Shown: positions 1 to 10,606 of the stretch, one piece after another
How positions within the stretch are numbered: the stretch's first letter is position 1
Layout: each line of letters begins with the position of its first letter
NCBI GenBank assembly: GCA_003597995.1
Contig: QZJY01000057.1
Location: forward strand, 1 to 10,695
Source of the DNA: Dehalococcoidia bacterium
Lineage (GTDB): Bacteria; Chloroflexota; Dehalococcoidia; Dehalococcoidales; UBA1222
Length of the DNA stretch: 10,695 nt
Direction of reading: 5' to 3'
Made by a program: the position numbers and the translations under genes
The notes under the pieces: model-generated
Databases searched by the model: none
What the model was told of the DNA's origin: nothing
The model's input: only the letters and a program-made list of their open reading frames with translations

Positions 1-449
1 GAGGCGGGGGCCTTGCCGCCCCGGGCCTGGATGCGGGCGAATGCCGTTTCCAGGGGCACACGCAACACGTAGTAGCAAGTTCTAAGCCCGCGACCCGCGG
101 CATATAGGTGGTATTGGCGGGTGTGGAGCATCACGCCCTCCCATGCGACCGCCCAATATCCCGCCTTTTTCGCCTGGATACAGGCATGTTCCAGGGCATT
201 AAGGATCTCAATCTTCGAGCCGATACGGTCCACACCCGGAATCTTAACACTCGGCGTGAGATAGTCGCCGATGAGCACAATGCCGAAATTCCTTACCGCC
301 GTGAGGGGTACCGTGTACCCTGCCACTACCGACTCACCCTGCTCGGCCACAGCACGGAGCACGGTCGACTTGCCCGCACCATTCGTTCCAAGAACAGTTA
401 GCAAGACCAGGGGCGATCCATCAAAGGCATTTACGCCGAAGGTAGTCAC
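1..449 (-). CDS. P-loop NTPase/kinase-like protein. The N-terminus is in the window and the C-terminus runs past position 1.
   Basis: Manual minus-strand translation gives (V/M)TTFGVNAFDGSPLVLLTVLGTNGAGKSTVLRAVAEQGESVVAGYTVPLTAVRNFGIVLIGDYLTPSVKIPGVDRIGSKIEILNALEHACIQAKKAGYWAVAWEGVMLHTRQYHLYAAGRGLRTCYYVLRVPLETAFARIQARGGKAPA..., open to position 1. It has a Walker A motif (GTNGAGKST) preceded by a hydrophobic strand, and a hydrophobic strand ending in Asp (GIVLIGD) that resembles Walker B. An in-frame TGA sits at 453-455, followed by GTG at 447-449. The gene is absent from the ORF track, presumably because it has no stop inside the window. Confidence 0.6.
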   Translation of the reverse strand, partial: MTTFGVNAFDGSPLVLLTVLGTNGAGKSTVLRAVAEQGESVVAGYTVPLTAVRNFGIVLIGDYLTPSVKIPGVDRIGSKIEILNALEHACIQAKKAGYWAVAWEGVMLHTRQYHLYAAGRGLRTCYYVLRVPLETAFARIQARGGKAPA

Positions 450-453
450 CCGA

Positions 454-651
454 TCACGTACGGCGCGTGTGGGCCTTGTGGATCTTCGTTGAGCGAGCCT
501 TGCCGCAGGTCGGGCAGATGCGAGTTTGGTAGAATGGCGTGGGGCGGCGCTCGCCGGTCGTAAGCTGATGTTCGCGCACCACGTTGTCGGCTTGAATGCG
601 CGCCACGAGACGGGCCATCTCACTGGGGGTGCGGGCGTACTTCCGCGCCAT
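454..651 (-). CDS. Small basic protein of about 65 aa with a CPTC Cys pair; function unknown.
   Basis: This is the track ORF 454..678. Its first M at 678 is actually a TTG codon. An in-frame ATG at 649-651 lies 1 nt after the upstream kinase stop (653-655), giving MARKYARTPSEMARLVARIQADNVVREHQLTTGERRPTPFYQTRICPTCGKARSTKIHKAHTRRT. Third-position GC is very high, about 80% by hand count, which supports coding. The protein is rich in Arg and Lys. Confidence 0.45.
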   Translation of the reverse strand: MARKYARTPSEMARLVARIQADNVVREHQLTTGERRPTPFYQTRICPTCGKARSTKIHKAHTRRT

Positions 652-652
652 G

Positions 653-1222
653 TCAGGAGGACCTAATAGCGCGGTCAATCCACGCGTGAATCACAGCGTG
701 CTCAGGATAGCCCGGGGTAATCCAGAATTCCGCAACCTCGTGCAACGGCGCTGCGGGGTGGTCCCGTTGGAACTTGGCGAACGCCCGGGTATACCGGGAG
801 GCAAAGAGTTGTTCCGCATTCCGGCTGCCGCTTTCCCAAAACTCCTTGCGGTACGCCTTACCCCGGCGCACACAGCGGGCTTCGATATGGCGTGCACCGA
901 CCTCTACCGTCTGGAGCATCAGCGCCGCGCGGAGCCCCCGGTACATGCCGAAGGTGGACTGATGCACGAGGCACCGGAAGACGGCACTGTAGATCCGTGT
1001 ACCCTCAATAAGAAGCACGCGGGCCCGCGGATCGGCCCACCGTGTCATCATGTTGCGAAAGGTCGTCACCAACGGCTTCTGAAGAAGGGTATCTTCATCC
1101 GCCGTAATAACCCATTCGGGCTTGATCAGCCCTGCCTGGACCAGTCGTTCGCCGGCCTGGCGGAGCACCGTAGTCTTGCCGGCAGCGTTGCCGCCGGCAA
1201 GCAGGATGGCGCTGTATTGCAC
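653..1222 (-). CDS. P-loop kinase-like protein of 189 aa. It could be a (d)NMP kinase or a modified-nucleotide or DNA kinase; its specificity is unknown.
   Basis: Walker A (AILLAGGNAAGKTTVLRQ) lies at the extreme N-terminus, followed by an acidic strand (VITADED). The size matches small nucleotide kinases. The start is GTG at 1220-1222, immediately after an in-frame stop. Order of motifs and spacing are similar to the truncated P-loop gene at 1..449, suggesting a paralog. Confidence 0.7.
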   Translation of the reverse strand: MQYSAILLAGGNAAGKTTVLRQAGERLVQAGLIKPEWVITADEDTLLQKPLVTTFRNMMTRWADPRARVLLIEGTRIYSAVFRCLVHQSTFGMYRGLRAALMLQTVEVGARHIEARCVRRGKAYRKEFWESGSRNAEQLFASRYTRAFAKFQRDHPAAPLHEVAEFWITPGYPEHAVIHAWIDRAIRSS

Positions 1223-1289
1223 CCCTAATTACGGCGAAGACCGCACGGCTTCAATCGCCTGCGTGCTTCCATGCCGCCGTACCGGGTCG

Positions 1290-1466
1290 TCATGGCTGAG
1301 CGTGCGTGCCGGTGCGGAGGTTGACCTGTCGGAGAATAGTGATGACTTCGTCCAGGCTATGTGCGACGAAATTCAGCGACGACTCGTACATACCCAACGT
1401 AACGGTGTATCCATTCTCCGCCGGGTAAACCGTGAGACTCGTCGCGTCGTAGGTCGTACCTGCCAC
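1290..1466 (-). CDS. Possible unannotated small ORF of 58 aa, hypothetical.
   Basis: Manual translation from GTG at 1464-1466, 1 nt after the flotillin TAG stop, to TGA at 1290-1292 gives VAGTTYDATSLTVYPAENGYTVTLGMYESSLNFVAHSLDEVITILRQVNLRTGTHAQP. Third-position GC is about 70% by hand count. It falls below the 60-aa cutoff of the ORF track. Confidence 0.25.
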   Translation of the reverse strand: MAGTTYDATSLTVYPAENGYTVTLGMYESSLNFVAHSLDEVITILRQVNLRTGTHAQP

Positions 1467-1467
1467 G

Positions 1468-3000
1468 CTAGACCCCCTTATCCTCCACAGCGTTCAGATC
1501 GGACACCCCTGCCTTGGCCAACAGCGGGCTGATGTCGATACCCATCGCCTTGCACCGTTCAACGAGCGCGAAGAGGGCTTGGGGCCCAATACCCACGTAC
1601 CGGTCCAAGGCGCTACCGTGCCCGTTGCTGCTGCCGGAATCCATGACGATGATCTTATCCGCCTCAGCCAACGGCGCCGTCGCCGCGGCCATGACCCCGC
1701 TGAATTCCTTGATCGCGGCCGGCACCAGCGTTTGGGCAGCCTCGAGGATCTGGAGGAGCCGGCCGGCTTCATTCAGGGCCTTGTATGCTTCGGCCTTCTT
1801 GAGCGTGCCCTCAGCTTCCGCGAGGAGTTTGGCACGGATGCCGTCGGCTTCGGCCAGCAACTCGGCCCGCTTTGCCGCGGCCCGCCCTTCGCCTTCCGCG
1901 GCCAGGGCTTTACGCTGTGCTTCGGCCTCGATTTCTATCGCCCGCGCCCGGCCTTCCGCCGCGACCTCGGCCGAGCGACGCTGTGCTTCGGCCGGCCTGA
2001 TTACTTCTGCCACGAGTTCCTGCTCGCGACGAGCAGCCGCAGCCTCTGCCACTTCGGTTGCCTTGAGTGTGCGGACGAGTTCGACCTCTTGCTCCTTCTC
2101 CACGACCGCCTTCCGCGCTTCGGCCGTTGCCAACGGACCAGCCTGCTCGGCCCGGGCGCTTTCGGCGTTGGTTTCTGCCCTGTAACGGGCGACGCGTACG
2201 TCCTTTTCTTTCTCCGCCTCTTTGATCAGCGCAATGTTTTCCTGCTCCTTTACGGCACCTTCTTTTTCGGCGGTCGTGGCCTGGATAGTCGCTTCCTTCT
2301 GCGCGTCAGCGGCACCGATTTCGGCGTCCCGCTTGACCTCCGCGGTCCGCTTCAGCCCCAACGCGGCCAAATAGCCTTGCGAGTCGGACAGTTCCTTGAC
2401 CGTAAGGATATCGATCTTGAGCCCCAGGCGGGCCAGGTCGCTCTGTGACTCGTTAATCATACGCTGCTGGAACGCCGCCCGATCGCTGTTGATCTCCTCA
2501 ATGGACAGCGTGCCCAGCATGGAGCGCAGGTGGCCTTCCAGGGCCTCGTATGCCATCTGCCGGATCTCTTCTTGGCTTTTACCGATGAGCCGTTCGACGG
2601 CGTTGATAAGCAGCGTGTCCTCGCTGCCCACCTTGATGTTGGCAACGGCCTTGATCGACAGCGGCACGCCTTCCCGTGTGATAGCTTCTTGGACGGCTAG
2701 ATTCGGGATGGTGATGACCCGTAGGTCTAGCTCGTCCTTACGCTCGAGAAACGGGATAACGAGGGTCGCCCCACCGCGCACGAGGCGGTAGCCGACCGTT
2801 ACGGTCTGCTCCTCCCCGTTCTCATTGCGTGTCACGATCCGGTGCTGCCGCCCCGAGACAACGGCCACAAGATGTGGTGGCACTTTGATGTAGTTGGCCC
2901 GCAGCATCCGAATGATGATGGCGAGCATGAGCACGACAAGTCCAACGATGGCTAGCGTCGTCAACCATGCGGCTATCTGCTGTCCGATATCAAGACCCAC
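1468..3000 (-). CDS. floT: Flotillin of the FloT/YuaG type (SPFH/band-7 domain protein).
   Basis: The 510-aa protein has an N-terminal TM helix (LTTLAIVGLVVLMLAIIIRML) and an SPFH core containing RLVRGGATLVIPFLE, LIGKSQEEIRQMAYEALEGHLRSMLGTLSIEEI and LGLKIDILTVKELSDSQGYLAALGLKRTAEVKRDAEI. By recall these align closely with B. subtilis FloT. A long Ala/Glu/Arg-rich coiled-coil repeat region follows, then a C-terminal tail. The start is GTG at 2998-3000, overlapping the nfeD stop by 11 nt. Confidence 0.85.
   Translation of the reverse strand: MGLDIGQQIAAWLTTLAIVGLVVLMLAIIIRMLRANYIKVPPHLVAVVSGRQHRIVTRNENGEEQTVTVGYRLVRGGATLVIPFLERKDELDLRVITIPNLAVQEAITREGVPLSIKAVANIKVGSEDTLLINAVERLIGKSQEEIRQMAYEALEGHLRSMLGTLSIEEINSDRAAFQQRMINESQSDLARLGLKIDILTVKELSDSQGYLAALGLKRTAEVKRDAEIGAADAQKEATIQATTAEKEGAVKEQENIALIKEAEKEKDVRVARYRAETNAESARAEQAGPLATAEARKAVVEKEQEVELVRTLKATEVAEAAAARREQELVAEVIRPAEAQRRSAEVAAEGRARAIEIEAEAQRKALAAEGEGRAAAKRAELLAEADGIRAKLLAEAEGTLKKAEAYKALNEAGRLLQILEAAQTLVPAAIKEFSGVMAAATAPLAEADKIIVMDSGSSNGHGSALDRYVGIGPQALFALVERCKAMGIDISPLLAKAGVSDLNAVEDKGV
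1780..2350 (+). repeat. Low-complexity GC-rich coding repeats, the flotillin EA-rich coiled-coil region.
   Basis: gcttcggcc-like motifs recur around 1787, 1841, 1917, 1985, 2117 and 2160. On the minus strand they encode AEAE, AEGR and KRAE repeats. The same region produces long spurious plus-strand ORFs (1514..2185 and 1579..2448). Confidence 0.5.
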
Positions 3001-3508
3001 GGTGATTCTCCTTTACGCGGATGGAGGGTTTGACTAGCACCTGGTCTCCTATGAATGTTGTCAAAATTACACGGGTGCCGACGGGGTAGGCCGGCGCGTA
3101 CGGCTCCCCGGCCCGTGCGACGAATGTCTGTTGGTTCCCGCCGACATTGACGACAACTTCGCCGGCTGTTAGCCCCGGCCCCACTTGCACAGTCACGACG
3201 CCGGTGCGGCCGAAGACGTCTGCGGTTTGCACGTGACTCGTCGACTGTTGACGGCTGATCACACGGAGCATCCACACCATCAGCGCACCAAAGCACAGTC
3301 CCGCGAGTACCCCGTACCCGGCGGCGCCAACGATACCGAAGCCGGCGTAGCGAGCTAGCTGCCCGAACCCGCCAAACGCCGCGAGAAAGGCTGCAATTAC
3401 TTTCATGTTGGCTAACTGCGGCCCATCGTGGTCCAAATCCCCGTCGAGATCAAACAGGAACGCGATGAGCAGGCCGGCTAAGCCGACGGCGAGCAGTATG
3501 ACGAACAT
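2990..3508 (-). CDS. nfeD: NfeD-like membrane protein (YuaF/YqiJ type), the usual partner of flotillin.
   Basis: From the internal ATG (aa 51 of track ORF 2990..3658) the protein reads MFVILLAVGLAGLLIAFLFDLDGD..., with hydrophobic TM segments (VIAAFLAAFGGFGQL, GIVGAAGYGVLAGLCFGALMVWML). A C-terminal OB-like beta domain follows (GRTGVVTVQVGPGLTAGEVVVNVGGNQQTFVARAGEPYAPAYPVGTRVILTTFIGDQVLVKP). The ATG lies 5 nt downstream of the upstream gene's stop (3513). The GTG start at 3658 listed in the track would overlap the upstream gene by 146 nt and was disfavoured. Confidence 0.75.
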   Translation of the reverse strand: MFVILLAVGLAGLLIAFLFDLDGDLDHDGPQLANMKVIAAFLAAFGGFGQLARYAGFGIVGAAGYGVLAGLCFGALMVWMLRVISRQQSTSHVQTADVFGRTGVVTVQVGPGLTAGEVVVNVGGNQQTFVARAGEPYAPAYPVGTRVILTTFIGDQVLVKPSIRVKENHRGS

Positions 3509-3512
3509 GCCT

Positions 3513-4457
3513 TCACCCCTTGTGTACCCAATACTTGGGATTGCGGAACCGCTGCGGAATCGTGTCCCAGAGGCGTAGATCCGTGCTGGCTTTGGCCGGG
3601 TCGTAGGTGCGCTTTGCGCGCCCGAACTCCTTGAACCGCACGTATTTCTGGTATTCACATAAGGCTTGTTCGAGATTCTCCAAGGTTAGCGGGGGCCCAA
3701 GAAGCGTGGCGCCGGCTGCTGCTAGCTGGTCGTACTGGCTGTCGCGTAATTCCATCAGTGCCGGCTGCACCTGCGGCAGGCGTATGCGGCGCTCAAGCAA
3801 CAGGTCAAGCCCCCGAATCGCTCCGGGTCCACAGAAGGCCCACTCGTCGAGCCACGAGCTTGGGAGAATGTCGACTTCGGGGTAACAGCAGTCAATCATG
3901 ATCTCAAAGGCGTTAAACCCGGCCCAGCCGGGCACTTGCATGAGCACGCGATGCGCCTGGACGGGGTTGGTGGCATCGGCCAGTTCGTCAAGGACGCGGC
4001 TAACGTGTTCCGCGAGCCATGTCAGATTCGTGATAATCGTGCGTAGCTTGCCCCCGCCGCCCCCGCCGCCGTGACCAGTGATCATATACGCCCCGGTGAA
4101 GATCTTCACGCCTTGGGCCCGGAGCGCCTCCAACCGGTGGAACATCCGTTTGGAGCTCCAGGACTCAGGCGTCAGGTAGCCGCCGAGAGCGTCGTAGGTA
4201 GCCGGCCACCCAAAGGAGCGGAAGGCCGCGACGTTAAAGAGCTGGTTTTCTGGCTTGCCTTGCTCGGGCAGACGGCGAAGAAGTTCGCGCGTCCCCCGAT
4301 CTAGTTCACGGTAAATGTTCGTGAATGCTACGCTGCGCAACACCTGATCCTCGGACCACGGCGGCGGTTCCAGTCGAATGATCCGGCGCACGAACACCGC
4401 ATGTCGCTCAGCGACAAACCGCCAAAACTGTGGAACATGCTCAGGGTGCCAGTCCAT
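3513..4457 (-). CDS. Hypothetical 314-aa protein with a poly-Gly loop (GHGGGGGGGK). Candidate partner enzyme of the adjacent TS-like gene; function unknown.
   Basis: The ORF has an ATG start at 4455-4457, 7 nt after the TS-like gene's TAG stop, and its stop lies 5 nt before the nfeD start. Codon usage and third-position GC match the neighbouring genes. I could assign no family from the sequence alone. The Gly-rich loop does not fit the Walker A pattern GxxxxGK[ST]. Confidence 0.75.
   Translation of the reverse strand: MDWHPEHVPQFWRFVAERHAVFVRRIIRLEPPPWSEDQVLRSVAFTNIYRELDRGTRELLRRLPEQGKPENQLFNVAAFRSFGWPATYDALGGYLTPESWSSKRMFHRLEALRAQGVKIFTGAYMITGHGGGGGGGKLRTIITNLTWLAEHVSRVLDELADATNPVQAHRVLMQVPGWAGFNAFEIMIDCCYPEVDILPSSWLDEWAFCGPGAIRGLDLLLERRIRLPQVQPALMELRDSQYDQLAAAGATLLGPPLTLENLEQALCEYQKYVRFKEFGRAKRTYDPAKASTDLRLWDTIPQRFRNPKYWVHKG
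4051..4068 (+). repeat. Perfect tandem 9-mer (cccccgccg) x2 inside the 314-aa CDS, encoding the Gly7 run.
   Basis: Read directly from the sequence: cccccgccgcccccgccg at 4051-4068. Its reverse complement, ggc ggc ggg ggc ggc ggg ggc, encodes GGGGGGG. The repeat unit is a multiple of three. Confidence 0.8.
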
Positions 4458-4464
4458 GTCGTCC

Positions 4465-5637
4465 CTACGGGCCGTGATATTCAGGCAAGGAAGGCTGCAC
4501 AGCCCCGTCGTGTTTAATGTAGGCGAGTACGACGGCCGGATAATCCGGGAGATAAACGTGGCGCGTTACGTGCCGCCGCGCTGCCCACCGCCACAGGAAT
4601 TCCCATGCGGCCACGGCCCAATCCTGCGCAGCTACACAGTGGAGTTCGTCGACTGCCCGTTGGCATCGCTCAACGTTGTCGCGGGCACTTGTACCGTGTA
4701 AGTGGCCCCATGCCCGTAACATTCGCCGGACGCTCTCCCAATACGGACAATCGACCGGATCGTCGAGCGTTCGGGCCAACAGGGCCGCCCGTGCCAACGC
4801 CGGACCGGGGGCCATGCGGGTAAACGGCACGTGCCGGTACACGTCAAAGGACACGTGAGGATTCTCGACGAGTCGGCGTACGATGGGATCATCCTCGTAC
4901 ACGTGCAGGCTGGAGCTGAAGTGCGAATACTCGCCGACGTCCACCCCAAGCTCACAGGCCAACGCCTCCTGGATGGTCGTAAATTGCACGATGTTTGTAT
5001 ACGAAAGGCCCAGGACCAAATCGTTCGAGCGGTTGAAGGTAGCCGCCCAGAGCTTGCCATCCCGCAGTTGGTACGTGCAGGCTATGTTGCAGGGCATATC
5101 ACGGGTCTCTACCTGCGGGTTATCGAGTTCCGGATCCCTCAGCACGGTGGCAGCGCGGCGGCTGCCGGCGTCCAATCGCAACTGCGCGAGGACGTCTTTA
5201 AGCTGGTCTGCGGTGCCCTGAAACCCCGCACGACGCAGGCGCTTACCGTACGCGCCATGGAAGTCCGGCCCGCCGTCCAAGTACTGGCGGAGTTGTGAGT
5301 TGTACCGGCAAATCCATTCGGCGTCACTCCGGCCGGCCAGGATCCACACGGGTTCCGCTAGCTGGAAAAAGGGGTTTGCCCGCCGGTACGGGATTGTAAG
5401 CACCCGCTGCCGGGGCTGCACCAGCATAGTCAGGGCGTGTAGCATTTCCCTGTGCGTGCGCCCCCGGGAGGTTACGGGGGTGCCATAGAGGCGCATTTGC
5501 TGTACGGCGTCTACAAACCACTCGTTCGCATGCCCGGCCAAGATCAGCCGTTCGGCCTGGTGCTCGCTGGAGGCGCCCCACTTTCCGGCAGCGGTTTCGT
5601 CAGCGTTGGGCGGTGAGCCGTTTCCGTTGCCTGTCAC
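4465..5637 (-). CDS. Thymidylate-synthase-family enzyme, divergent. It may be a canonical thymidylate synthase or a pyrimidine hydroxymethylase; uracil specificity is predicted.
   Basis: The 390-aa protein aligns, by recall, block for block with E. coli ThyA. HGAYGKRLRRAG matches GPVYGKQWRAW. DQLKDVLAQLRLDAGSRRAATVLRDPELD...MPCNIACTYQLRDGKLWAATFNRSNDLVLGLSYTNIVQFTTIQEALACELGVDVGEYSHFSSSLHVYEDD matches [26 protein letters not shown]...[69 protein letters not shown]. The catalytic Cys and the Asn equivalent to E. coli N177 (dUMP specificity) are present. It differs from ThyA in three ways: PCN replaces PCH, there are about 90 extra C-terminal residues, and there is a low-complexity N-terminal extension of about 25 aa. 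The start is GTG at 5635-5637, overlapping the RuvC gene's stop by 38 nt; an alternative TTG start lies about 31 codons downstream. Confidence 0.85.
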   Translation of the reverse strand: MTGNGNGSPPNADETAAGKWGASSEHQAERLILAGHANEWFVDAVQQMRLYGTPVTSRGRTHREMLHALTMLVQPRQRVLTIPYRRANPFFQLAEPVWILAGRSDAEWICRYNSQLRQYLDGGPDFHGAYGKRLRRAGFQGTADQLKDVLAQLRLDAGSRRAATVLRDPELDNPQVETRDMPCNIACTYQLRDGKLWAATFNRSNDLVLGLSYTNIVQFTTIQEALACELGVDVGEYSHFSSSLHVYEDDPIVRRLVENPHVSFDVYRHVPFTRMAPGPALARAALLARTLDDPVDCPYWESVRRMLRAWGHLHGTSARDNVERCQRAVDELHCVAAQDWAVAAWEFLWRWAARRHVTRHVYLPDYPAVVLAYIKHDGAVQPSLPEYHGP

Positions 5638-6271
5638 GGCGCTTCTCCTTTGGAGCCGCTTGCTGTTCCCACGTATAGGCCAGCTTCAGCAACACTTCGC
5701 GTTGCGGTTTCGTGAGGCGGTCGCCTGTACTGCTGCCCGTCAGGACGGTGTGGAAGTCGTGCCCGATCCGGGCGAGGACGAACGCGTCGGCGAGGTTGTG
5801 GTCTTTGTACTCGCGCCCCCACCGTTTGTAAACCTGAAGCAGCACTTCGTCTTTTTGCTGGGCACCGCAATACTTCTTAACGTGCGCCACATTCACGGGA
5901 AGAAAATGCAGCGTTGGCCAGCGCGACTCCCAGAGCACAACCTGGTACACCGCCTGGATGGCCGCCGCTTCACTGGCGGTGTGCGCGTTCGACAGCCAAA
6001 TCTCTGACTCCAGTGCCACCACAACGTGCGCCGCGGAGTCGCGCGCAGACAAGACGATCCGGGCAAGCCGCTCGCGCTGTTCGTACAGGCGCAGGGGGCG
6101 CGGCCCGTCACCCGGGGCGGTCTCGAGCGCGTACTCCTGAACAACCCGTCCGTCCGTTAGGACACAGACGCCTGTGTGCGCAAGTGAGGGGTCAACCCCG
6201 ACGACGGTGACGGCTGGGTAGCTTGGGTCGCCGCTGCTTCCGGGCGGGCTGTTGACCGGCTGCCTGACCAT
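5600..6271 (-). CDS. RuvC-like Holliday-junction resolvase (phage-type).
   Basis: The 223-aa protein carries an N-terminal RuvC-fold signature (VTVVGVDPSLAHTGVCVL) with an Asp, then a conserved Glu (VVALESEIW), then AAIQAVYQVVLWE and a C-terminal acidic motif (DHNLADAFVLARIG). A basic tail (KEKRRDRQRKR) follows. The start is ATG at 6269-6271. Confidence 0.8.
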   Translation of the reverse strand: MVRQPVNSPPGSSGDPSYPAVTVVGVDPSLAHTGVCVLTDGRVVQEYALETAPGDGPRPLRLYEQRERLARIVLSARDSAAHVVVALESEIWLSNAHTASEAAAIQAVYQVVLWESRWPTLHFLPVNVAHVKKYCGAQQKDEVLLQVYKRWGREYKDHNLADAFVLARIGHDFHTVLTGSSTGDRLTKPQREVLLKLAYTWEQQAAPKEKRRDRQRKRLTAQR

Positions 6272-6458
6272 AAGTCACCTCAAGCACTTCGACATCCACA
6301 CGTCGATACGGGATGCCGGGCGTGTTATTGCCGCATTTGTAGCAGAAGAACGCGGTGTCCTGCATCGTGTGCACGAGGCCCACCTTGCAACGTGTGCACA
6401 GATAAATCGTGTCCGGCACGGACATCATGCGATGTTCGGCGTAGTGCGGCATTGTCAT
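6192..6458 (-). CDS. Small Zn-ribbon protein of 88 aa from the internal ATG; function unknown.
   Basis: This is track ORF 6192..6569. The ATG at 6456-6458 forms an ATGA overlap with the Dcd-like gene's TGA stop (6455-6457). The protein reads MTMPHYAEHRMMSVPDTIYLCTRCKVGLVHTMQDTAFFCYKCGNN..., with a CxxC...CxxC motif and a basic C-terminal tail. Its last 80 nt overlap the RuvC N-terminus in another frame. In that overlap the third-position GC is lower for this frame than for the RuvC frame. Confidence 0.5.
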   Translation of the reverse strand: MTMPHYAEHRMMSVPDTIYLCTRCKVGLVHTMQDTAFFCYKCGNNTPGIPYRRVDVEVLEVTYGQAAGQQPARKQRRPKLPSRHRRRG

Positions 6459-6967
6459 GGGCGTGCTAGCTGCGCCGTTGCTGCCCCTTGGTAACGGCCG
6501 TTGTAGGGGTTGCGGGCAAGGCTGGAGAGCCGGTGGACGACCACCTGTGCGAACCGCAGCCCAGGCCAAAGGGGCAGTTGATGATAGCGCGTCTCATTCT
6601 TAATTTCCATCGTCCCAATGCCGTCCCACCCCGGGTCAAACCAAAAGGCCACGGTATGATTCCAGCCTTCACGGGCCCGGCTGGACTTCATCTTCAACTC
6701 CAGCGCATACCCGTTCGGTACGTGGAGCCACTCCCATGTTGACGTAAGGAGGAATGCCCCGGGGTCAACAAGAAACGGTTTCTCCTCACTGTACCCCGCA
6801 AGCGAGTGCGGCTCCCATCCGGGGACACGCCCGGGCTTTTCTACCCAAGCGTCAGTACCAATGCGGATGTCAACCGATGCGGGATTTACAAGCTTCCGGT
6901 CTTCGTCGGGCGCCTTGGGAAACAGCACAGGAAACAGGTCGTCCAGCTCCCGATCACTTAGAGGCAT
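6455..6967 (-). CDS. dcd: dCTP-deaminase-family protein (dUTPase superfamily), possibly a bifunctional dCTP deaminase/dUTPase.
   Basis: The 170-aa protein reads MPLSDRELDDLFP...VNPASVDIRIGTD, which compares with E. coli Dcd MRLCDRDIEAW...VDVRLGN. It also has KMKSSRAREGW (Ser/Arg motif), FDPGWDGIGTMEIKNE (the Dcd-type DPGWxG motif plus the catalytic Glu) and GLRFAQVV. The ATG at 6965-6967 overlaps the Rad50-like gene's TAA stop by 10 nt. Confidence 0.8.
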   Translation of the reverse strand: MPLSDRELDDLFPVLFPKAPDEDRKLVNPASVDIRIGTDAWVEKPGRVPGWEPHSLAGYSEEKPFLVDPGAFLLTSTWEWLHVPNGYALELKMKSSRAREGWNHTVAFWFDPGWDGIGTMEIKNETRYHQLPLWPGLRFAQVVVHRLSSLARNPYNGRYQGAATAQLARP

Positions 6968-8703
6968 TCGACCTCCGCTTCGCCTTGGGAACGTGTCACA
7001 CGCACCACACGGGCACCGGGAAACAGCGCCTTCTGGTCCTGATTGTGTGTAATCACAAATACGGTTACACCGTTGTGGACTTCTTCATGGAGCATGTCAA
7101 TGATAGCGCGCATCCCCGTAGGATCAATACCGCTGAGGCATTCGTCTAAGACTAACAGGTTCACCGGTTCAGGCATGCGCCACCGGGCTAGGGCCCGCAG
7201 CGCCCACGCGATGATGAGATTTACTCGTTCCTTTTCGCCCCGGCTCAGCCCCTCGTACGTCGGGGCACTGGCCCCGCTGATGCGAATGAGGTCTTCATTG
7301 CGGCTGGTGCGAAGCGAGTTAAACTCAACGTGAATTGTGCCGCCAGTCAGCCGGCGACTGACGGCGGCGGCGGTGCGGTTGAGCACCGGCAATGCTTGTG
7401 CAAAGAGATAGGCTTGCAGGCCGTCGCGGCCAAACTCCTTAACCCAAAACGTCGCCCGTTCCAACAGCGTCGTCTTGAGGCTCAGTTCAGTCTTTGCTTC
7501 CCGCAACGCGGCGTCGGCGCGCTCCACCTGTTCGGCGGCGAGTCGGCGATGCGCGGCCTGTTCCTCCTGCTGTCGATGAATCTCCCGCATTTGGTGTTCA
7601 AGGGCATCTTGCCCCTGCGCCGCGGTTTCCAACCGGCGGTAGTCCTGCTCGGCGGCCTGTAGCGCGGCCTGTAGCTTTGCGGCCTGCTCGGTCGTGTGTT
7701 GGGCCTGCTCAGCGGCCTCCGCGCGATCGGCATGCAAGCCCGCCAGCCGACGTTCACTAGCTTTCCGCTGCTTTTTCAACTCCGCAACATTGTCGAACGG
7801 TCGCTTGCAGGTAGGGCAAGCAGTTGAGAAGTCCTGCGCGGCCAGGGAGCGTATTTCCCCGTCCAGACGGTGAACGGTTGCGAGACGTGTATTCGCCTCT
7901 TGCTGGGCCTTGTCGTAGGCGGCCTTACGCACCCGACAAGAGAGTTCGCTCTTAGTCAAGAGGCTCTGCGCGTGTTTCGCTTGCCGTAGTCGTTCCTCAA
8001 GCCGCTCTAGGGCGGCTTCGTAATCGTACGTAGCGGCAGCGCGCACGTGCGCAAGGAAACGCTCCGCCTCGACATGCACCGCCTCCCGTTCCCGTACGAC
8101 CGCCGCGGCGGTGGCCCGCTCCTTCTCGAGGGACGCGGCGTGTTTTGCGGCCAGGGCTGCCGCCTCATTCAATTCGCCTAGCTTGAGCACGGCCTCCAGC
8201 ACGGCCATCTGCCCGGAGAAGCCGGCCTGTGCAAGCGTCGATTCGCCGCTGAGCACGACCGCGGCGCAAAGGGTGGCATAATCGAGACCAAACAGGGCCT
8301 CCGTGTCACGGGCGCGCACGGCCGCATCCCGTGACAGCGGCACCCCCTGCTCTTCAAGTGTAGAAATTACAAGACTCGGGTGACCCTTGGCCGTGCGGGC
8401 GCGACGCAGGCGGACAACGGCCCCCGAATCAAGTTGAATAAGCTCCTCGACGTCGGCGCCGCGTAGGGGGTGGGCGGCGTCGTCGGTAACTGCTCGATTG
8501 CCGTACCGGACCATCTTACCGAAGAGGGCCCACAGAAGCGTTTCGACGATAACGAGCGACTTTCCAGCGCCGTTACTATCCGCGGCGCCGGGGGTGTCGA
8601 GGTTGACGCCCTCGACGAGAACAATTCCGGGGCGGTTAAGTGGAAGGGTGACCGGGCGGCGGATCCGGTTGAAGCTGTGGATCCGATGTTCGAGGAACTT
8701 CAC
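6958..8703 (-). CDS. Rad50/SbcC-like ATPase of the SMC-type ABC family, with a zinc hook.
   Basis: The 581-aa protein has an SbcC-like N-terminus (MKFLEHRIHSFNRIRRPVTLPL...DSNGAGKS, Walker A). A long Ala/Glu/Arg-rich coiled coil follows, with a central CPTC hook (DFSTACPTCKRPFDN). The C-terminus carries the signature motif (LSRGEKERV), Walker B (LLVLDECLSGID) and an H-loop (VFVITHN). The start is GTG at 8701-8703. Confidence 0.85.
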   Translation of the reverse strand: MKFLEHRIHSFNRIRRPVTLPLNRPGIVLVEGVNLDTPGAADSNGAGKSLVIVETLLWALFGKMVRYGNRAVTDDAAHPLRGADVEELIQLDSGAVVRLRRARTAKGHPSLVISTLEEQGVPLSRDAAVRARDTEALFGLDYATLCAAVVLSGESTLAQAGFSGQMAVLEAVLKLGELNEAAALAAKHAASLEKERATAAAVVREREAVHVEAERFLAHVRAAATYDYEAALERLEERLRQAKHAQSLLTKSELSCRVRKAAYDKAQQEANTRLATVHRLDGEIRSLAAQDFSTACPTCKRPFDNVAELKKQRKASERRLAGLHADRAEAAEQAQHTTEQAAKLQAALQAAEQDYRRLETAAQGQDALEHQMREIHRQQEEQAAHRRLAAEQVERADAALREAKTELSLKTTLLERATFWVKEFGRDGLQAYLFAQALPVLNRTAAAVSRRLTGGTIHVEFNSLRTSRNEDLIRISGASAPTYEGLSRGEKERVNLIIAWALRALARWRMPEPVNLLVLDECLSGIDPTGMRAIIDMLHEEVHNGVTVFVITHNQDQKALFPGARVVRVTRSQGEAEVECL

Positions 8704-9172
8704 GCTCGCGAAGTTCCCGTAGTGTGTCGCGCAAGAAGGTATACCGACACACTGCGCACGGCGTCACGTCGGGAAGGTCTAAGCGACACGGTTCCTTGAG
8801 CCCATTGGATGCGACCAGCCGCAAACAGTGTAGTCGTGAGTCAGGCGCGGGGCGCGTCGCAGCAATAAGAATCCTATCCACGAGGGCGTAGGCTTTCTTT
8901 GCTTCCACTGACCACATTAGATTGGACGCCGCCATCTCGTCGTAGCGCGCCTTAGTCAGCGGCGGTTCCTGGTACTCCAGGTGGATAGGGCTGGCGGGCT
9001 TAGGGGGGCAACTGGGGCAACGGACCTGGGTGCGGCGCGTGACCGTAAATCGCTTCCACCAGCCGCTCGGTGCCGCCCGCACCGGCTTTACTGTGCCGCA
9101 CACTTCACACGTCAGGGCATCGCGGTACCAGCGGTCCTTATATTGATGCCACGTTGCACGTGTTGAAGTCAT
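8636..9172 (-). CDS. Hypothetical 178-aa protein with Cys pairs (Zn-ribbon-like) and a Trp-rich N-terminus.
   Basis: The ATG at 9170-9172 is preceded by GGATGG about 4 nt upstream. The protein reads MTSTRATWHQYKDRWYRDALTCEVCGTVKP...VRCPSCPP, with a further CAVC motif. Its C-terminal 68 nt overlap the Rad50-like start in another frame. Third-position GC is moderate, about 60%. Confidence 0.5.
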   Translation of the reverse strand: MTSTRATWHQYKDRWYRDALTCEVCGTVKPVRAAPSGWWKRFTVTRRTQVRCPSCPPKPASPIHLEYQEPPLTKARYDEMAASNLMWSVEAKKAYALVDRILIAATRPAPDSRLHCLRLVASNGLKEPCRLDLPDVTPCAVCRYTFLRDTLRELREREVPRTSDPQLQPDPPPGHPST

Positions 9173-9299: not shown

Positions 9300-9575
9300 T
9301 TACGACGTGGATGCCTGCTCTCCCTGCGCTGTGACAGTCATTGCTCCCCGAAGCGCGAGGTAGGAGATGACGCGCCCCAACGTCCACTCCGGACCCAGCT
9401 GTTCGGCCACGGTGCGCAGGTCGGCCAAGACCGCGACCGGCAGGTCCACCCGCACCGCAGGGTCCAGGAAATCAGCTAGCTCTCCCGGCTCGACATCCAG
9501 ATCCTTCAAGACCGTTTTACAGAAGTGCGGCCAATCTTTTGGAAACTGTGTTGCGACGAGTTTCAGCTTGCCCAT
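9300..9575 (-). CDS. Hypothetical 91-aa protein.
   Basis: This is track ORF 9300..9578, which begins with GTG. The second codon is an ATG at 9573-9575 that overlaps the Mre11-like gene's TGA stop (9575-9577) by 1 nt, a TGATG junction. The protein reads MGKLKLVATQFPKDWPHFCKTVLKDLDVEPGELADFLDPAVRVDLPVAVLADLRTVAEQLGPEW.... I recognised no family. Confidence 0.5.
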   Translation of the reverse strand: MGKLKLVATQFPKDWPHFCKTVLKDLDVEPGELADFLDPAVRVDLPVAVLADLRTVAEQLGPEWTLGRVISYLALRGAMTVTAQGEQASTS

Positions 9576-10606
9576 CACCTGCTGGCCTGCCGGTAAAGGT
9601 ACATGCCCAATTCCACCATCTGCGCCTGCTCATCTGCACTGAGTTCAGGGCATTTTGCCCGAACGCGCTGCCGGAGCAACTCTTCCGAGATCGCCTGCCC
9701 CCCGGCCAACGCTGTCATAATCGATTTCTCTACCTCTGGCACAATCTCTGCGGGCAGCGGCACGGCGTCCAGCCAGCCCAAGCCTTTCGCTGCGTGCTGT
9801 GCTTCTTCCAACTTCTCCTTCGGCACGGCCACGATGCGCAAGTAACCGCCTTCTGGGGGCGCGACGGGAAGCTTCGGCCACTTCGATGTGACGAATACGG
9901 GGGCGGTAAAGGTTACCCGTTCGTACCCGTGGTCGTCAATCAGCACCCCCCCGCGGGAACCGACGTCCCCGAAGTCGAAGTGCATCGGGGCCCCCACGTA
10001 AACCACGCGATAGTTCCGCTGCACAGAGGGCTTGTGCACGTGGTTAAAGAACACCCGGGGGAAGCGGCCCAGCTCACCCAACTTCAGGGGCGCCTCCAGC
10101 CAGTAGTCGGATTCCAGCTCTACCCCTTCGGCGGCGTAGTGACTAAAGACCATGAATTCACTCTCGGCGGCGTCAAAGGCTTTGACCATCACTGCCGGAT
10201 CTGGGTGGAAGGGAATAAAGGTGGCCACGCCACCTAAAATGTCGATCTGTTCGGCCTGTTCGACGAGGGTCGTATTCGGTAGGTGTTTGAGTGGATACAG
10301 CGCGTGCTCTACACCATCCTCGAAATCGTGATTGCCCGGCACGATGATCGTTTCCACTACTCGTTCGGTTAACCGCTCCAGCGCCCGGTAAATGGCATTG
10401 TAGAGCCGGAAGCTAATAAAGTGCCGGCGGTGAAAGATGTCCCCACCCAACACGAGCGTTTCCACATCTCGTCCAACCAGTATGCGCTCCACCTGTCCCA
10501 GCACGTTGAGTAGGTCGTTGACCCGTGTGGGCAGACCATTCACATCTAGCCGGCTGTACGGCCAGTTCCAGTTCGCGTGCAGGTCCCCAATATTGAGGAT
10601 CTTCAA
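9575..10606 (-). CDS. Mre11/SbcD-like calcineurin-type phosphoesterase (DNA repair nuclease).
   Basis: The 343-aa protein has an N-terminus typical of SbcD (MKILNIGDLHANW, motif I GDxH), then GGDIFH (motifs II/III), GNHD (motif IV) and later His residues. The start is TTG at 10604-10606, overlapping the upstream gene's TGA stop (10603-10605). Confidence 0.85.
   Translation of the reverse strand: MKILNIGDLHANWNWPYSRLDVNGLPTRVNDLLNVLGQVERILVGRDVETLVLGGDIFHRRHFISFRLYNAIYRALERLTERVVETIIVPGNHDFEDGVEHALYPLKHLPNTTLVEQAEQIDILGGVATFIPFHPDPAVMVKAFDAAESEFMVFSHYAAEGVELESDYWLEAPLKLGELGRFPRVFFNHVHKPSVQRNYRVVYVGAPMHFDFGDVGSRGGVLIDDHGYERVTFTAPVFVTSKWPKLPVAPPEGGYLRIVAVPKEKLEEAQHAAKGLGWLDAVPLPAEIVPEVEKSIMTALAGGQAISEELLRQRVRAKCPELSADEQAQMVELGMYLYRQASR

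Follow-up and report, generated by a model that had tools for sequence, protein, structure and literature searches.

The contig QZJY01000057.1 (10,695 bp, complete), analysed here at its full length and referred to as the window, was deposited in the metagenome-assembled genome (MAG) of a Dehalococcoidia bacterium. All plausible genes of the window lie on the minus strand. They include what appears, from sequence comparison, to be a phage system for the hypermodification of thymidine via 5-hydroxymethyl-2'-deoxyuridine (5-hmdU), related at about 30% identity to the systems of the phages M6, ViI and PhiW-14. Position 1 is a contig end and lies inside the first of the following genes:

3-449, minus strand: 5-hmdU DNA kinase (5-HMUDK) according to its PF18748 match, N-terminal 149 codons with a GTG start at 449, cut by the contig end
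653-1222, minus strand: P189, a P-loop kinase-fold protein of 189 aa from an unannotated family
1468-3000, minus strand: flotillin (SPFH/Band 7), 510 aa, PF01145 with E 6e-22
2990-3508, minus strand: NfeD-like membrane protein, 172 aa from the ATG at 3508, assigned by homology to flotillin partners
3513-4457, minus strand: HMUDK_hel or aGPT-Pplase clade 1 protein, 314 aa, PF18723 with E 5.2e-50
4465-5637, minus strand: thymidylate synthase (TS)-family enzyme, 390 aa, PF00303 with E 4.7e-18
6455-6967, minus strand: Dcd-family protein, 170 aa, PF22769 with E 1.6e-18

A previous interpretation made from the letters of this DNA (the sequence-only reading) had described a contiguous, co-directional and tightly coupled array, and this description is borne out. 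The genes occupy a single strand, at the junctions anything from an overlap of 80 nt to a gap of 127 nt is found, several of them being gaps of 1-7 nt or ATGA-type overlaps, and all genes listed there were found at or near the positions given. Missing from that list were a RuvC-like resolvase, an open reading frame (ORF) with a Zn-ribbon and two ORFs of 58 and 74 aa.

The truncated gene at 3-449 is predicted to encode a 5-hmdU DNA kinase. Its product matches the family HMUDK_HMUD1 (PF18748) with an E-value of 2.5e-8 and a score of 34.1 bits, the gathering score being 27. It shares 44% identity with the kinase of an uncultured contig (L002, described below) and 33% with the product of a gene of the Yuavirus PAC5 which is annotated as 'kinase' and occupies the position of M6 gp54. 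The motifs G-x-N-G-x-G-K, IGDY, G-x-D-R-I, EG and R-I-x-x-R are common to all three kinases. Neither of the two P-loop proteins of the window, i.e. this kinase and P189, matches Thymidylate_kin (PF02223).

The TS-family protein matches phrog_5131 with an E-value of 7e-72, a family bearing the PHROG label 'thymidylate synthase'. Its best match among solved structures is the CMP 5-hydroxymethylase MilA (5jnh/5b6d, E 2e-25), the best thymidylate synthase reaching E 6e-11. The ThyA equivalogs of NCBIfam score 30-71 bits at cut-offs of 108-427 (e.g. 71 against 174.55 and 48.6 against 327). In the alignment of the family (A6) the Cys nucleophile, the Arg, Ser and Asp contacts to phosphate and pyrimidine, the His and the Tyr are all kept. 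At the site of uracil/cytosine specificity the protein carries an Asn (YTNIV) where the cytosine-specific MilA has an Asp, so the enzyme should act on uracil. The folate-side residues W80 and W83 of E. coli ThyA are absent, and in place of the TS C-terminus there is a helical extension of some 140 aa, which the phage relatives also have. These residues agree with the uracil-specific TS-family enzyme with atypical closure elements proposed in the sequence-only reading. Thus, the protein shows neither the equivalog match nor the folate-closure elements of a genuine ThyA, and groups with hydroxymethylases at homology and residue level. The nearest cultured relatives are Yuavirus (YuA/M6-like) genes with about 30% identity, annotated as 'thymidylate synthase / dUMP hydroxymethyltransferase' and in some cases as deoxyuridylate hydroxymethyltransferase. 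According to Lee et al. (PMC5889632) 5-HMUDK co-associates with dUMP hydroxymethyltransferase. The TS-family enzyme is, in our prediction, a dUMP hydroxymethylase making 5-hmdUMP.

The Dcd-family protein matches phrog_1663 ('dCTP deaminase', E 2e-34) and scores 87 bits with TIGR02274, just below the cut-off of 92.8. Its best solved relatives are the short dCTP deaminases 9ln0/8y1w (E 1.7e-16), followed by 2qxx (E 8e-16), and among the PDB entries it is nearer to all of these than to E. coli Dcd. The deposit name of 2qxx is deoxycytidine triphosphate deaminase; we take this protein to be the bifunctional enzyme of M. tuberculosis, although bifunctionality is not stated in the name. Close homologues of the Dcd-family protein (E 3e-52) adjoin P189-family genes in two other contigs (L014 and L017). 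Following the logic of the pathway, the protein would supply dUMP or dUTP to the hydroxymethylase. The characterised hypermodifying phages use a dCMP deaminase instead of a dCTP deaminase (PMC13458397).

Only 7 nt downstream of the TS-like gene lies the gene encoding the 314-aa protein (RJO61032.1, MAG locus tag C4542_07420). This protein had been taken for an orphan, which it is not. PF18723 (HMUDK_hel, '5-hmdU DNA kinase, helical domain', formerly aGPT-Pplase clade 1) covers its residues 8-275, phrog_2396 matches with an E-value of 4e-45, and the Yuavirus homologues are annotated as 'aGPT-Pplase1 domain-containing protein'. The name aGPT-Pplase1 denotes clade 1 in the pair of alpha-glutamyl/putrescinyl-thymine pyrophosphorylases. 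The motif L-C-E-(Y/F)-x-K, comprising C267, E268 and K271, is invariant in 21 homologues. An hhalign comparison aligns C267 with the cysteine of the 'ETVLC' motif in the amino acid:DNA transferase (ADDT, aGPT-Pplase2), which gives modest support (E 2.5e-4, probability 43%). The latter cysteine is required for the activity of M6 gp51 and ViI gp247 (PMC8989533) and contacts the flipped base in PaMx11 gp46 (PMC11472151, PMC13458397).

In the AlphaFold2 (AF2) model of the 314-aa protein the predicted local distance difference test score (pLDDT) is 92. The fold matches were weak, with archaeal Ogg glycosylases and PaMx11 gp46 (8z2n) at template modelling (TM) scores of 0.37-0.52 and E-values of 0.4-0.75, and a profile search against the PDB sequences returned spurious repeat-protein matches only. 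A relationship to the fold of helix-hairpin-helix glycosylases and ADDT, which is based on the literature, is therefore weakly indicated, being coherent but non-significant. Taken together, the 314-aa protein is a helical clade-1 paralogue of ADDT in which the catalytic-Cys motif was kept. No paper giving clade 1 an activity was found in our literature search.

Contigs syntenic with the window encode the closest relatives of the 314-aa protein, with 43-48% identity. Two such contigs, both uncultured, exhibit the following gene orders:

L002 (Logan SRR14194075): SbcD-x-SbcC-small ORFs-RuvC-GIY-YIG-TS-HD nucleotidase-HMUDK_hel-317 aa-PLP-333 aa-acetyltransferase-radical SAM-ADDT-NUMOD3-HMUDK-DUF3310-DnaG
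L003 (JGI 3300079545): SbcC-RuvC-TS-HD-HMUDK_hel-317 aa-ADDT

(PLP, pyridoxal phosphate enzyme; SAM, S-adenosylmethionine.) They resemble the window in the order SbcD-x-SbcC-small ORFs-RuvC-TS-HMUDK_hel, their TS and HMUDK_hel proteins are 43-50% identical to those of the window, and the shared proteins match with E-values of 1e-40 to 1e-130. Unlike the window, they contain an HD nucleotidase gene between TS and HMUDK_hel and an ADDT gene downstream, and they lack Dcd, P189 and the flotillin/NfeD pair; L002 alone also has the PLP, radical-SAM and acetyltransferase genes. L002 further carries RecA, a helicase, GIY-YIG and NUMOD3 homing endonucleases, DUF3310 and the DnaG primase. Judging from this gene content, L002 and L003 represent the type of hypermodification cluster that Lee et al. 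2022 described, located within a phage replication module. Because the set of TS-like, HMUDK_hel and HMUDK genes recurs with the same SbcD-SbcC-RuvC flank in both contigs, its co-location in the window is not a matter of chance, and the conserved order of SbcD, SbcC and RuvC points to a phage replication/recombination module.

Of the members which mark a hypermodification cluster, a predicted TS-family hydroxymethylase, a 5-HMUDK (PF18748) and a clade-1 HMUDK_hel protein (PF18723) are thus represented in the window. With a probability of roughly 75% we regard the window as part of the replication/nucleotide-metabolism module of an uncultured tailed phage or prophage remnant, encoding the core of a 5-hmdU-based thymidine hypermodification pathway. 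This reading builds on family memberships, conserved catalytic residues, synteny and co-occurrence; what the enzymes do, which base results and that the DNA is viral are inferred from these. The sequence-only reading had considered such a pathway plausible beside a simple supply of dTTP by Dcd, TS and thymidylate kinase (Tmk). The PF18748 kinase, its PF18723 partner, the hydroxymethylase-like TS and the lack of a thymidylate kinase all argue for the former. The latter does not fit kinases outside the thymidylate kinase family and ThyA equivalog scores far below the cut-offs. Among the partner families suggested there for profile searches, the 5-hmdU DNA kinase and the aGPT-Pplase clade 1 were recovered in the window, and ADDT, PLP and radical-SAM proteins were not.

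In the proposed pathway, the Dcd-family enzyme would turn dCTP into dUTP or dUMP, and the TS-family enzyme would hydroxymethylate dUMP to 5-hmdUMP instead of methylating it. After phosphorylation of 5-hmdUMP to the triphosphate, the phage polymerase would put 5-hmdU in the DNA instead of T. The 5-hmdU DNA kinase would then phosphorylate the hydroxymethyl group in the DNA polymer, yielding 5-phosphomethyl-2'-deoxyuridine (5-PmdU), whose phosphate would be swapped for a nucleophile by a cysteine-dependent base-flipping enzyme. For this step we propose an ADDT (aGPT-Pplase2) encoded beyond the contig end, possibly together with the clade-1 HMUDK_hel. P189 would be a second kinase linked to the pathway, and the flotillin/NfeD-like pair an independently mobile cassette in the variable slot of the cluster.

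Accordingly, the system is of a known kind, the 5-hmdU hypermodification cluster, in a divergent form. The searchable literature describes no such cluster with Dcd-type dUMP supply, with the P189 family or with an inserted flotillin cassette; new here are the P189 family beside or fused to the 5-hmdU DNA kinase and the flotillin/NfeD cassette in the slot of the tailoring enzymes. Hypermodified thymidine shields the DNA of phages against restriction and other nucleases, and the enzymes producing it (the DNA nucleobase kinase and the Cys-dependent DNA transferases) are being engineered as tools. With the window, such a system would be placed on a contig from a Dehalococcoidia MAG bin, its enzymes being only about 30% identical to those studied. 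P189 may fill the role of the missing 5-hmdUMP kinase or act on DNA bases as a second kinase, and HMUDK_hel has a catalytic-looking Cys-Glu motif and is mostly paired with a TS-like gene alone in the viral loci examined. If neither of the two is unusual, the system is simply another divergent member of the described pathway.

P189 belongs to no specific Pfam, PHROG, NCBIfam or PADLOC family, and only 28 relatives were detected among 1.84 billion cluster representatives. A tblastn search of the cultured-phage records gave no match at E <= 1; the collection presumably includes the Delftia phage PhiW-14. As a search pattern in viral and metagenome contigs the alignment of the family (A1) was too generic, and the gene contexts were taken from the contigs encoding the relatives. 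Conserved features of the family are G-G-N-A-A-G-K-T, a strand ending in E-G-T-R and several arginines. The AF2 model (pLDDT 96) exhibits a generic P-loop kinase fold, with polynucleotide kinase, thymidylate kinases and the 5-hmdU DNA kinase of SP10 at TM scores of about 0.55-0.6. An assignment as thymidylate kinase was rejected, none of 21 family members matching PF02223. The same applies to membership in the 5-HMUDK family, since none of the 21 matches PF18748 and the similarity to HMUDK is a remote one at profile level (hhalign probability 94.6%, E 7e-8).

P189 is linked to HMUDK by neighbourhood and fusion. In L013 the P189 homologue is followed by a 224-aa gene and then by HMUDK. The order in L014 is ADDT-...-acetyltransferase-95 aa-P189 homologue-DCD-82 aa-HMUDK-DUF3310-DnaG, and in L017 DCD overlaps the P189 homologue. 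In the IMG/VR locus L048 a 442-aa ORF (L048:7855-9183 (+)) combines an HMUDK domain at residues 37-213 (E 8e-44) with a P189 domain at residues 234-434 (E 1e-48) in one fusion, and directly upstream lies a gene for a dual-specificity (DSP-type) phosphatase (L048:7518-7955 (+)). In another protein (P0157) the P189 domain itself is fused to a DSP-type phosphatase. From these contexts P189 is a candidate second kinase of the pathway. Because of the HMUDK-P189 fusion and the link to the phosphatase, we tentatively favour, at somewhat less than even odds, an action at the DNA level together with 5-HMUDK, e.g. a second phosphorylation or a different sequence context. Alternatively it might be that P189 acts at the nucleotide level as a 5-hmdUMP kinase, a role favoured by the repeated P189-DCD adjacency and, in our estimate, about one chance in three. 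The phages with 5-hydroxymethyluracil (hmU) in their DNA are known to encode a dNMP kinase for 5-hmdUMP (PMC8989533).

Several observations weigh against a hypermodification pathway in the window. ADDT (PF18724) is absent from all six frames; the best match is the paralogue HMUDK_hel with an E-value of 0.069, obtained with a profile built from three diverse ADDTs which scores its positive controls at 1e-110 to 1e-177. There is no PLP, radical-SAM, flavin adenine dinucleotide (FAD) or acetyltransferase gene in the window, and no HD-type 5'-deoxynucleotidase or dTTPase for dTTP exclusion, unlike in the M6-like phages, L002 and L003. The slot which holds ADDT and the tailoring genes in L002 and L003 is occupied by flotillin and NfeD. 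The contig carries no virion structural gene and was deposited within a bacterial MAG. Sequence cannot tell hydroxymethylase from methylase activity with certainty, and the clade-1 homologue of M6 (gp55) was dispensable for formation of the glycinylated intermediate Nalpha-glycinylthymidine (Nalpha-GlyT) in a lysate reconstitution (PMC8989533). Furthermore, in 57-58 of 80 IMG/VR loci (L019-L098), which encode HMUDK_hel relatives and were scored with local profiles for seven families, HMUDK_hel is accompanied by a TS-like gene with no kinase or ADDT in the sequence available. Of the 35 loci extending 8 kb or more in both directions, 26 showed this pattern. Since most loci are without kinase or ADDT, the presence of HMUDK_hel alone is no proof of hypermodification.

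The same 80 loci bear on the missing transferase. HMUDK was found in 13 of them and ADDT in 11 of these 13, at a distance from the kinase of no more than about 1.5 kb in either direction. The two HMUDK loci without ADDT are contigs of 5-6 kb cut right beside the kinase, and hence all 11 informative loci have ADDT. This co-occurrence means that the kinase predicts a transferase nearby. In L048, L084 and L085 ADDT lies downstream of HMUDK, and as the contig ends inside the kinase gene, the lack of ADDT in the window is not evidence of its absence from the genome; a transferase just past the contig end is plausible. For the same reason the final base cannot be named from the contig.

No close relative was detected in a scan of IMG/VR with the single sequence of the 314-aa protein, but an alignment-based scan revealed at least 548 stretches encoding HMUDK_hel relatives. 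From its distribution the clade-1 protein looks like an enzyme belonging with the TS-like gene and not with the kinase whose name HMUDK_hel bears, in agreement with a report on pelagiphages describing TS and aG/PT-PPlase1 as 'partner' genes (PMC9599517). It occurs without ADDT in L007 and in the cellular locus L006, too. The latter, a clearly cellular ENA contig of 131 kb, contains a three-gene cassette of Tmk-like, HMUDK_hel and TS-like genes (L006:9349-12042 (+)) in the neighbourhood of response-regulator, microcompartment and glycosyltransferase genes, and the cassette resembles the TS- and kinase-containing defence systems of DefensePredictor (PMC13092281). The homologue closest to the 314-aa protein by E-value (46% identity) is located about 2 kb downstream of a TAGT glycosyltransferase gene (PF20691), in the region L004:948-4654 (+), on a 7.5-kb contig in which no homologue of the TS-like, HMUDK, P189 or Dcd proteins of the window was detected. 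This arrangement hints at a glycosylating branch using the same clade-1 protein. Within the 314-aa protein, a glycine run (GHGGGGGGGK, residues 128-137, about 4050-4080 of the window) lies in a gap-rich loop of the family alignment. This loop is the only low-confidence segment of the AF2 model (pLDDT <50, residues 130-134). The run may be a slippage-prone GGN repeat or a flexible linker.

The replicon might, alternatively, truly be without ADDT. In that case 5-HMUDK would phosphorylate 5-hmdU, P189 would possibly add a second phosphate and HMUDK_hel would be the sole base-flipping catalyst, and the outcome may be an undescribed thymidine derivative, regenerated T or the phosphorylated base as end product. 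Consistent with this are the lack of ADDT in the 10.2 kb upstream of the kinase gene, the alignment of the invariant Cys-Glu-x-x-Lys of HMUDK_hel with the catalytic Cys of ADDT, the clade-1 proteins without ADDT in most viral loci, L007 and L006, and the fusion tying the two kinase families in L048. Older work on PhiW-14 had reported a pyrophosphorylated intermediate (in 1981), but this was never reproduced with recombinant kinases, as recombinant 5-HMUDKs give only the monophosphate (PMC8989533). However, the contig end within the kinase gene, the ADDT genes accompanying HMUDK in every informative viral locus and following it in three of them, the lack of P189 homologues in the cultured-phage records and the coexistence of P189 relatives with ADDT in L014 and L048 make such a pathway improbable. 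We regard as equally unlikely a two-kinase branch in which 5-HMUDK and P189 would act in series on 5-hmdU in the DNA, e.g. via a pyrophosphoryl intermediate, which HMUDK_hel would resolve to an undescribed base or thymine. The mechanism of the conversion regenerating thymine was described as still unknown by Lee et al. 2018.

A location of the TS-like, HMUDK-type and kinase genes on a Dehalococcoidia chromosome, where they would form a nucleotide-modifying or nucleotide-depleting anti-phage defence cassette of the cell, would explain the deposition of the contig in a bacterial MAG and has a parallel in the cassette of L006. DefensePredictor validated E. coli systems with a 5-hydroxymethyluracil kinase domain and a thymidylate synthase domain, and aGPT-Pplase is among its predicted, unvalidated defence domains (PMC13092281). 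We nevertheless give this explanation little credence: none of the PADLOC-DB models matched when eight proteins, HMUDK_hel, P189, flotillin and the NfeD-like protein among them, were compared with this database, the SbcCD and RuvC genes at the flanks are of phage type and match PHROG families, no housekeeping gene is present on the contig, and L002, the closest syntenic relative, adds the replication genes and homing endonucleases listed above. Still less probable is an ordinary phage dTTP supply, in which a dCTP deaminase, a genuine thymidylate synthase and thymidylate/nucleotide kinases would serve DNA with canonical bases only. The Dcd and TS-family assignments on which it builds are sound, the TS catalytic residues and the uracil-specifying Asn are all present, and the PHROG label fits. 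Against it stand the ThyA equivalog scores, the hydroxymethylase as best solved match, the missing W80/W83 and TS C-terminus, the failure of both P-loop proteins to match PF02223 and the HMUDK_hel gene immediately behind the TS-like gene. Moreover, one of the P-loop proteins is a predicted 5-hmdU DNA kinase, an enzyme for which no substrate other than 5-hmdU in DNA is known.

Within the preferred hypermodification cluster, the interval from HMUDK_hel to HMUDK comprises the NfeD-like gene, flotillin, the 58-aa ORF, P189 and the 74-aa ORF. Besides Band_7 (PF01145), the flotillin matches PF15975 (E 3e-4), and the FloT model of NCBIfam scores 264 bits over residues 19-494, under its equivalog cut-off of 700. 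Of the closest homologues of the flotillin, one shares 62% identity with it and belongs to a cellular operon (L011/L012) with NusB, RNase III and P-type ATPase genes at its flanks; another, with 61%, comes from an unrelated groundwater contig of phage-like character (L009). The flotillin and NfeD-like pair of the latter (L009:9451-11518 (+), and L010) stands alongside Ro60/TROVE, RNA ligase, Fic and Gp3-like genes. Flotillin-like matches were obtained in only 10 of 50,697 phage records. The NfeD-like protein of the window has no Pfam match of its own, but the genes upstream of the closest flotillins (L011/L012 and L009) encode proteins 37-39% identical to it (37% in L009), and the partner gene in L011 shows a sub-threshold match to NfeD (PF01957, E 2.8e-5). 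The two genes are thus assigned to the flotillin/NfeD operon type, the NfeD half only by homology to these partners. In GC content at third codon positions (GC3) the pair does not differ from the neighbouring genes. A participation in the modification chemistry was rejected because the same pair occurs in unrelated cellular and phage-like contexts. The sequence-only reading had already placed the pair outside any described pathway, and we would extend this to a mobile two-gene cassette inserted in the variable slot of the cluster, which seems to circulate among environmental phages. The flotillin is probably unrelated to base chemistry.

Among the studied systems, the cluster of the Yuaviruses M6/YuA leading to 5-(2-aminoethyl)-2'-deoxyuridine (5-NedU; Lee et al. 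2018, 2022) resembles the window in the presence of a TS-family dUMP hydroxymethylase, a clade-1 protein and a 5-hmdU DNA kinase in the replication module. Yuavirus genes are also the best cultured-phage matches of the TS-like and 314-aa proteins, with an identity of only 27-33%. PAC5 carries aGPT-Pplase2, a PLP enzyme, a radical-SAM enzyme, the kinase, aGPT-Pplase1 and TS together. In contrast to the window, the M6-like phages have ADDT, PLP and radical-SAM genes between or next to the core genes, an HD 5'-deoxynucleotidase and a dCMP deaminase, whereas the window contains P189, flotillin and the NfeD-like gene and encodes a protein of the dCTP deaminase family. The corresponding enzymes of M6, ViI and PhiW-14 were reconstituted biochemically (PMC8989533).

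The P189-containing loci are similar to the window as well. L014 (JGI 3300050222, a 102-kb contig) contains a P189-family kinase, DCD (E 3e-52) and HMUDK within 2.5 kb, and L048 (IMG/VR 3300015371_002966) contains HMUDK_hel, a TS-like gene, HMUDK and a P189-family domain. Both differ from the window in including ADDT. L014 adds NUDIX, HAD-like, glyoxalase and acetyltransferase genes, and in L048 HMUDK is fused to P189 with the DSP phosphatase adjoining. The TS-like gene of L048 (L048:1523-3517 (+), 664 aa) contains an intein bearing an HNH endonuclease domain.

In pelagiphages of the HTVC023P type a TS-family gene adjoins a clade-1 Pplase gene near replication genes, too, with a deoxynucleotidase or glucosyltransferase nearby and no 5-HMUDK or Pplase2 reported (PMC9599517); compared to these, the window adds 5-HMUDK and the second kinase. 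The Bacillus hmU phages (SPO1 type) combine dUMP supply, a dUMP hydroxymethylase and a phage nucleotide kinase to make 5-hmdUTP. They differ in that T is replaced by 5-hmdU with no hypermodification and that a dCMP deaminase is used instead of a dCTP deaminase (PMC8989533). They are not among the carriers of 5-HMUDK or aGPT-Pplase listed by Lee et al.

The remaining genes of the window flank the modification genes or are interleaved with them:

454-678, minus strand: small ORF, 74 aa, an ORF only, overlapping P189 by 26 nt and ending 4 nt before the HMUDK start
1290-1466, minus strand: small ORF, 58 aa, an ORF only, 1-nt gap from the flotillin stop
5600-6271, minus strand: RuvC-like Holliday junction resolvase, phrog_159 with E 4.6e-22
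6192-6458, minus strand: Zn-ribbon small ORF, 88 aa, CxxC...CxxC motifs in the translation
6958-8703, minus strand: SbcC-like ATPase, PHROG match (SbcD/SbcC pair: phrog_100 with E 4e-30, phrog_77 with E 1e-49)
8636-9172, minus strand: small ORF between SbcD and SbcC, 178 aa, CxxC motifs, no family
9300-9578, minus strand: small ORF between SbcD and SbcC, 92 aa, no family
9575-10606, minus strand: SbcD-like phosphoesterase, PHROG match as given for the SbcD/SbcC pair

For the 58-aa ORF no family match was obtained in the Pfam, PHROG and PADLOC searches. A nucleotide search with the whole window against the 50,697 phage records gave no match, a scan for promoters and terminators remained at background level, and the tRNA and Rfam searches of the window found nothing. 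At protein level, PHROG families are matched by SbcD, SbcC, RuvC, TS and Dcd. GC3 is even across the genes (0.63-0.76).

The start of the Zn-ribbon ORF overlaps the Dcd stop by 4 nt, and L003 (E 1e-5) and L002 (E 3e-4) have weak homologues of this ORF in the equivalent position. The RuvC-like resolvase is a replication/recombination gene interleaved in the array and stands outside the base-modification chemistry; its homologues are found in the same position in L002 (E 4e-42) and L003 (E 4e-41). Together with RuvC, the SbcD/SbcC pair flanks and interleaves the modification genes in an order that is kept in L002 and L003.

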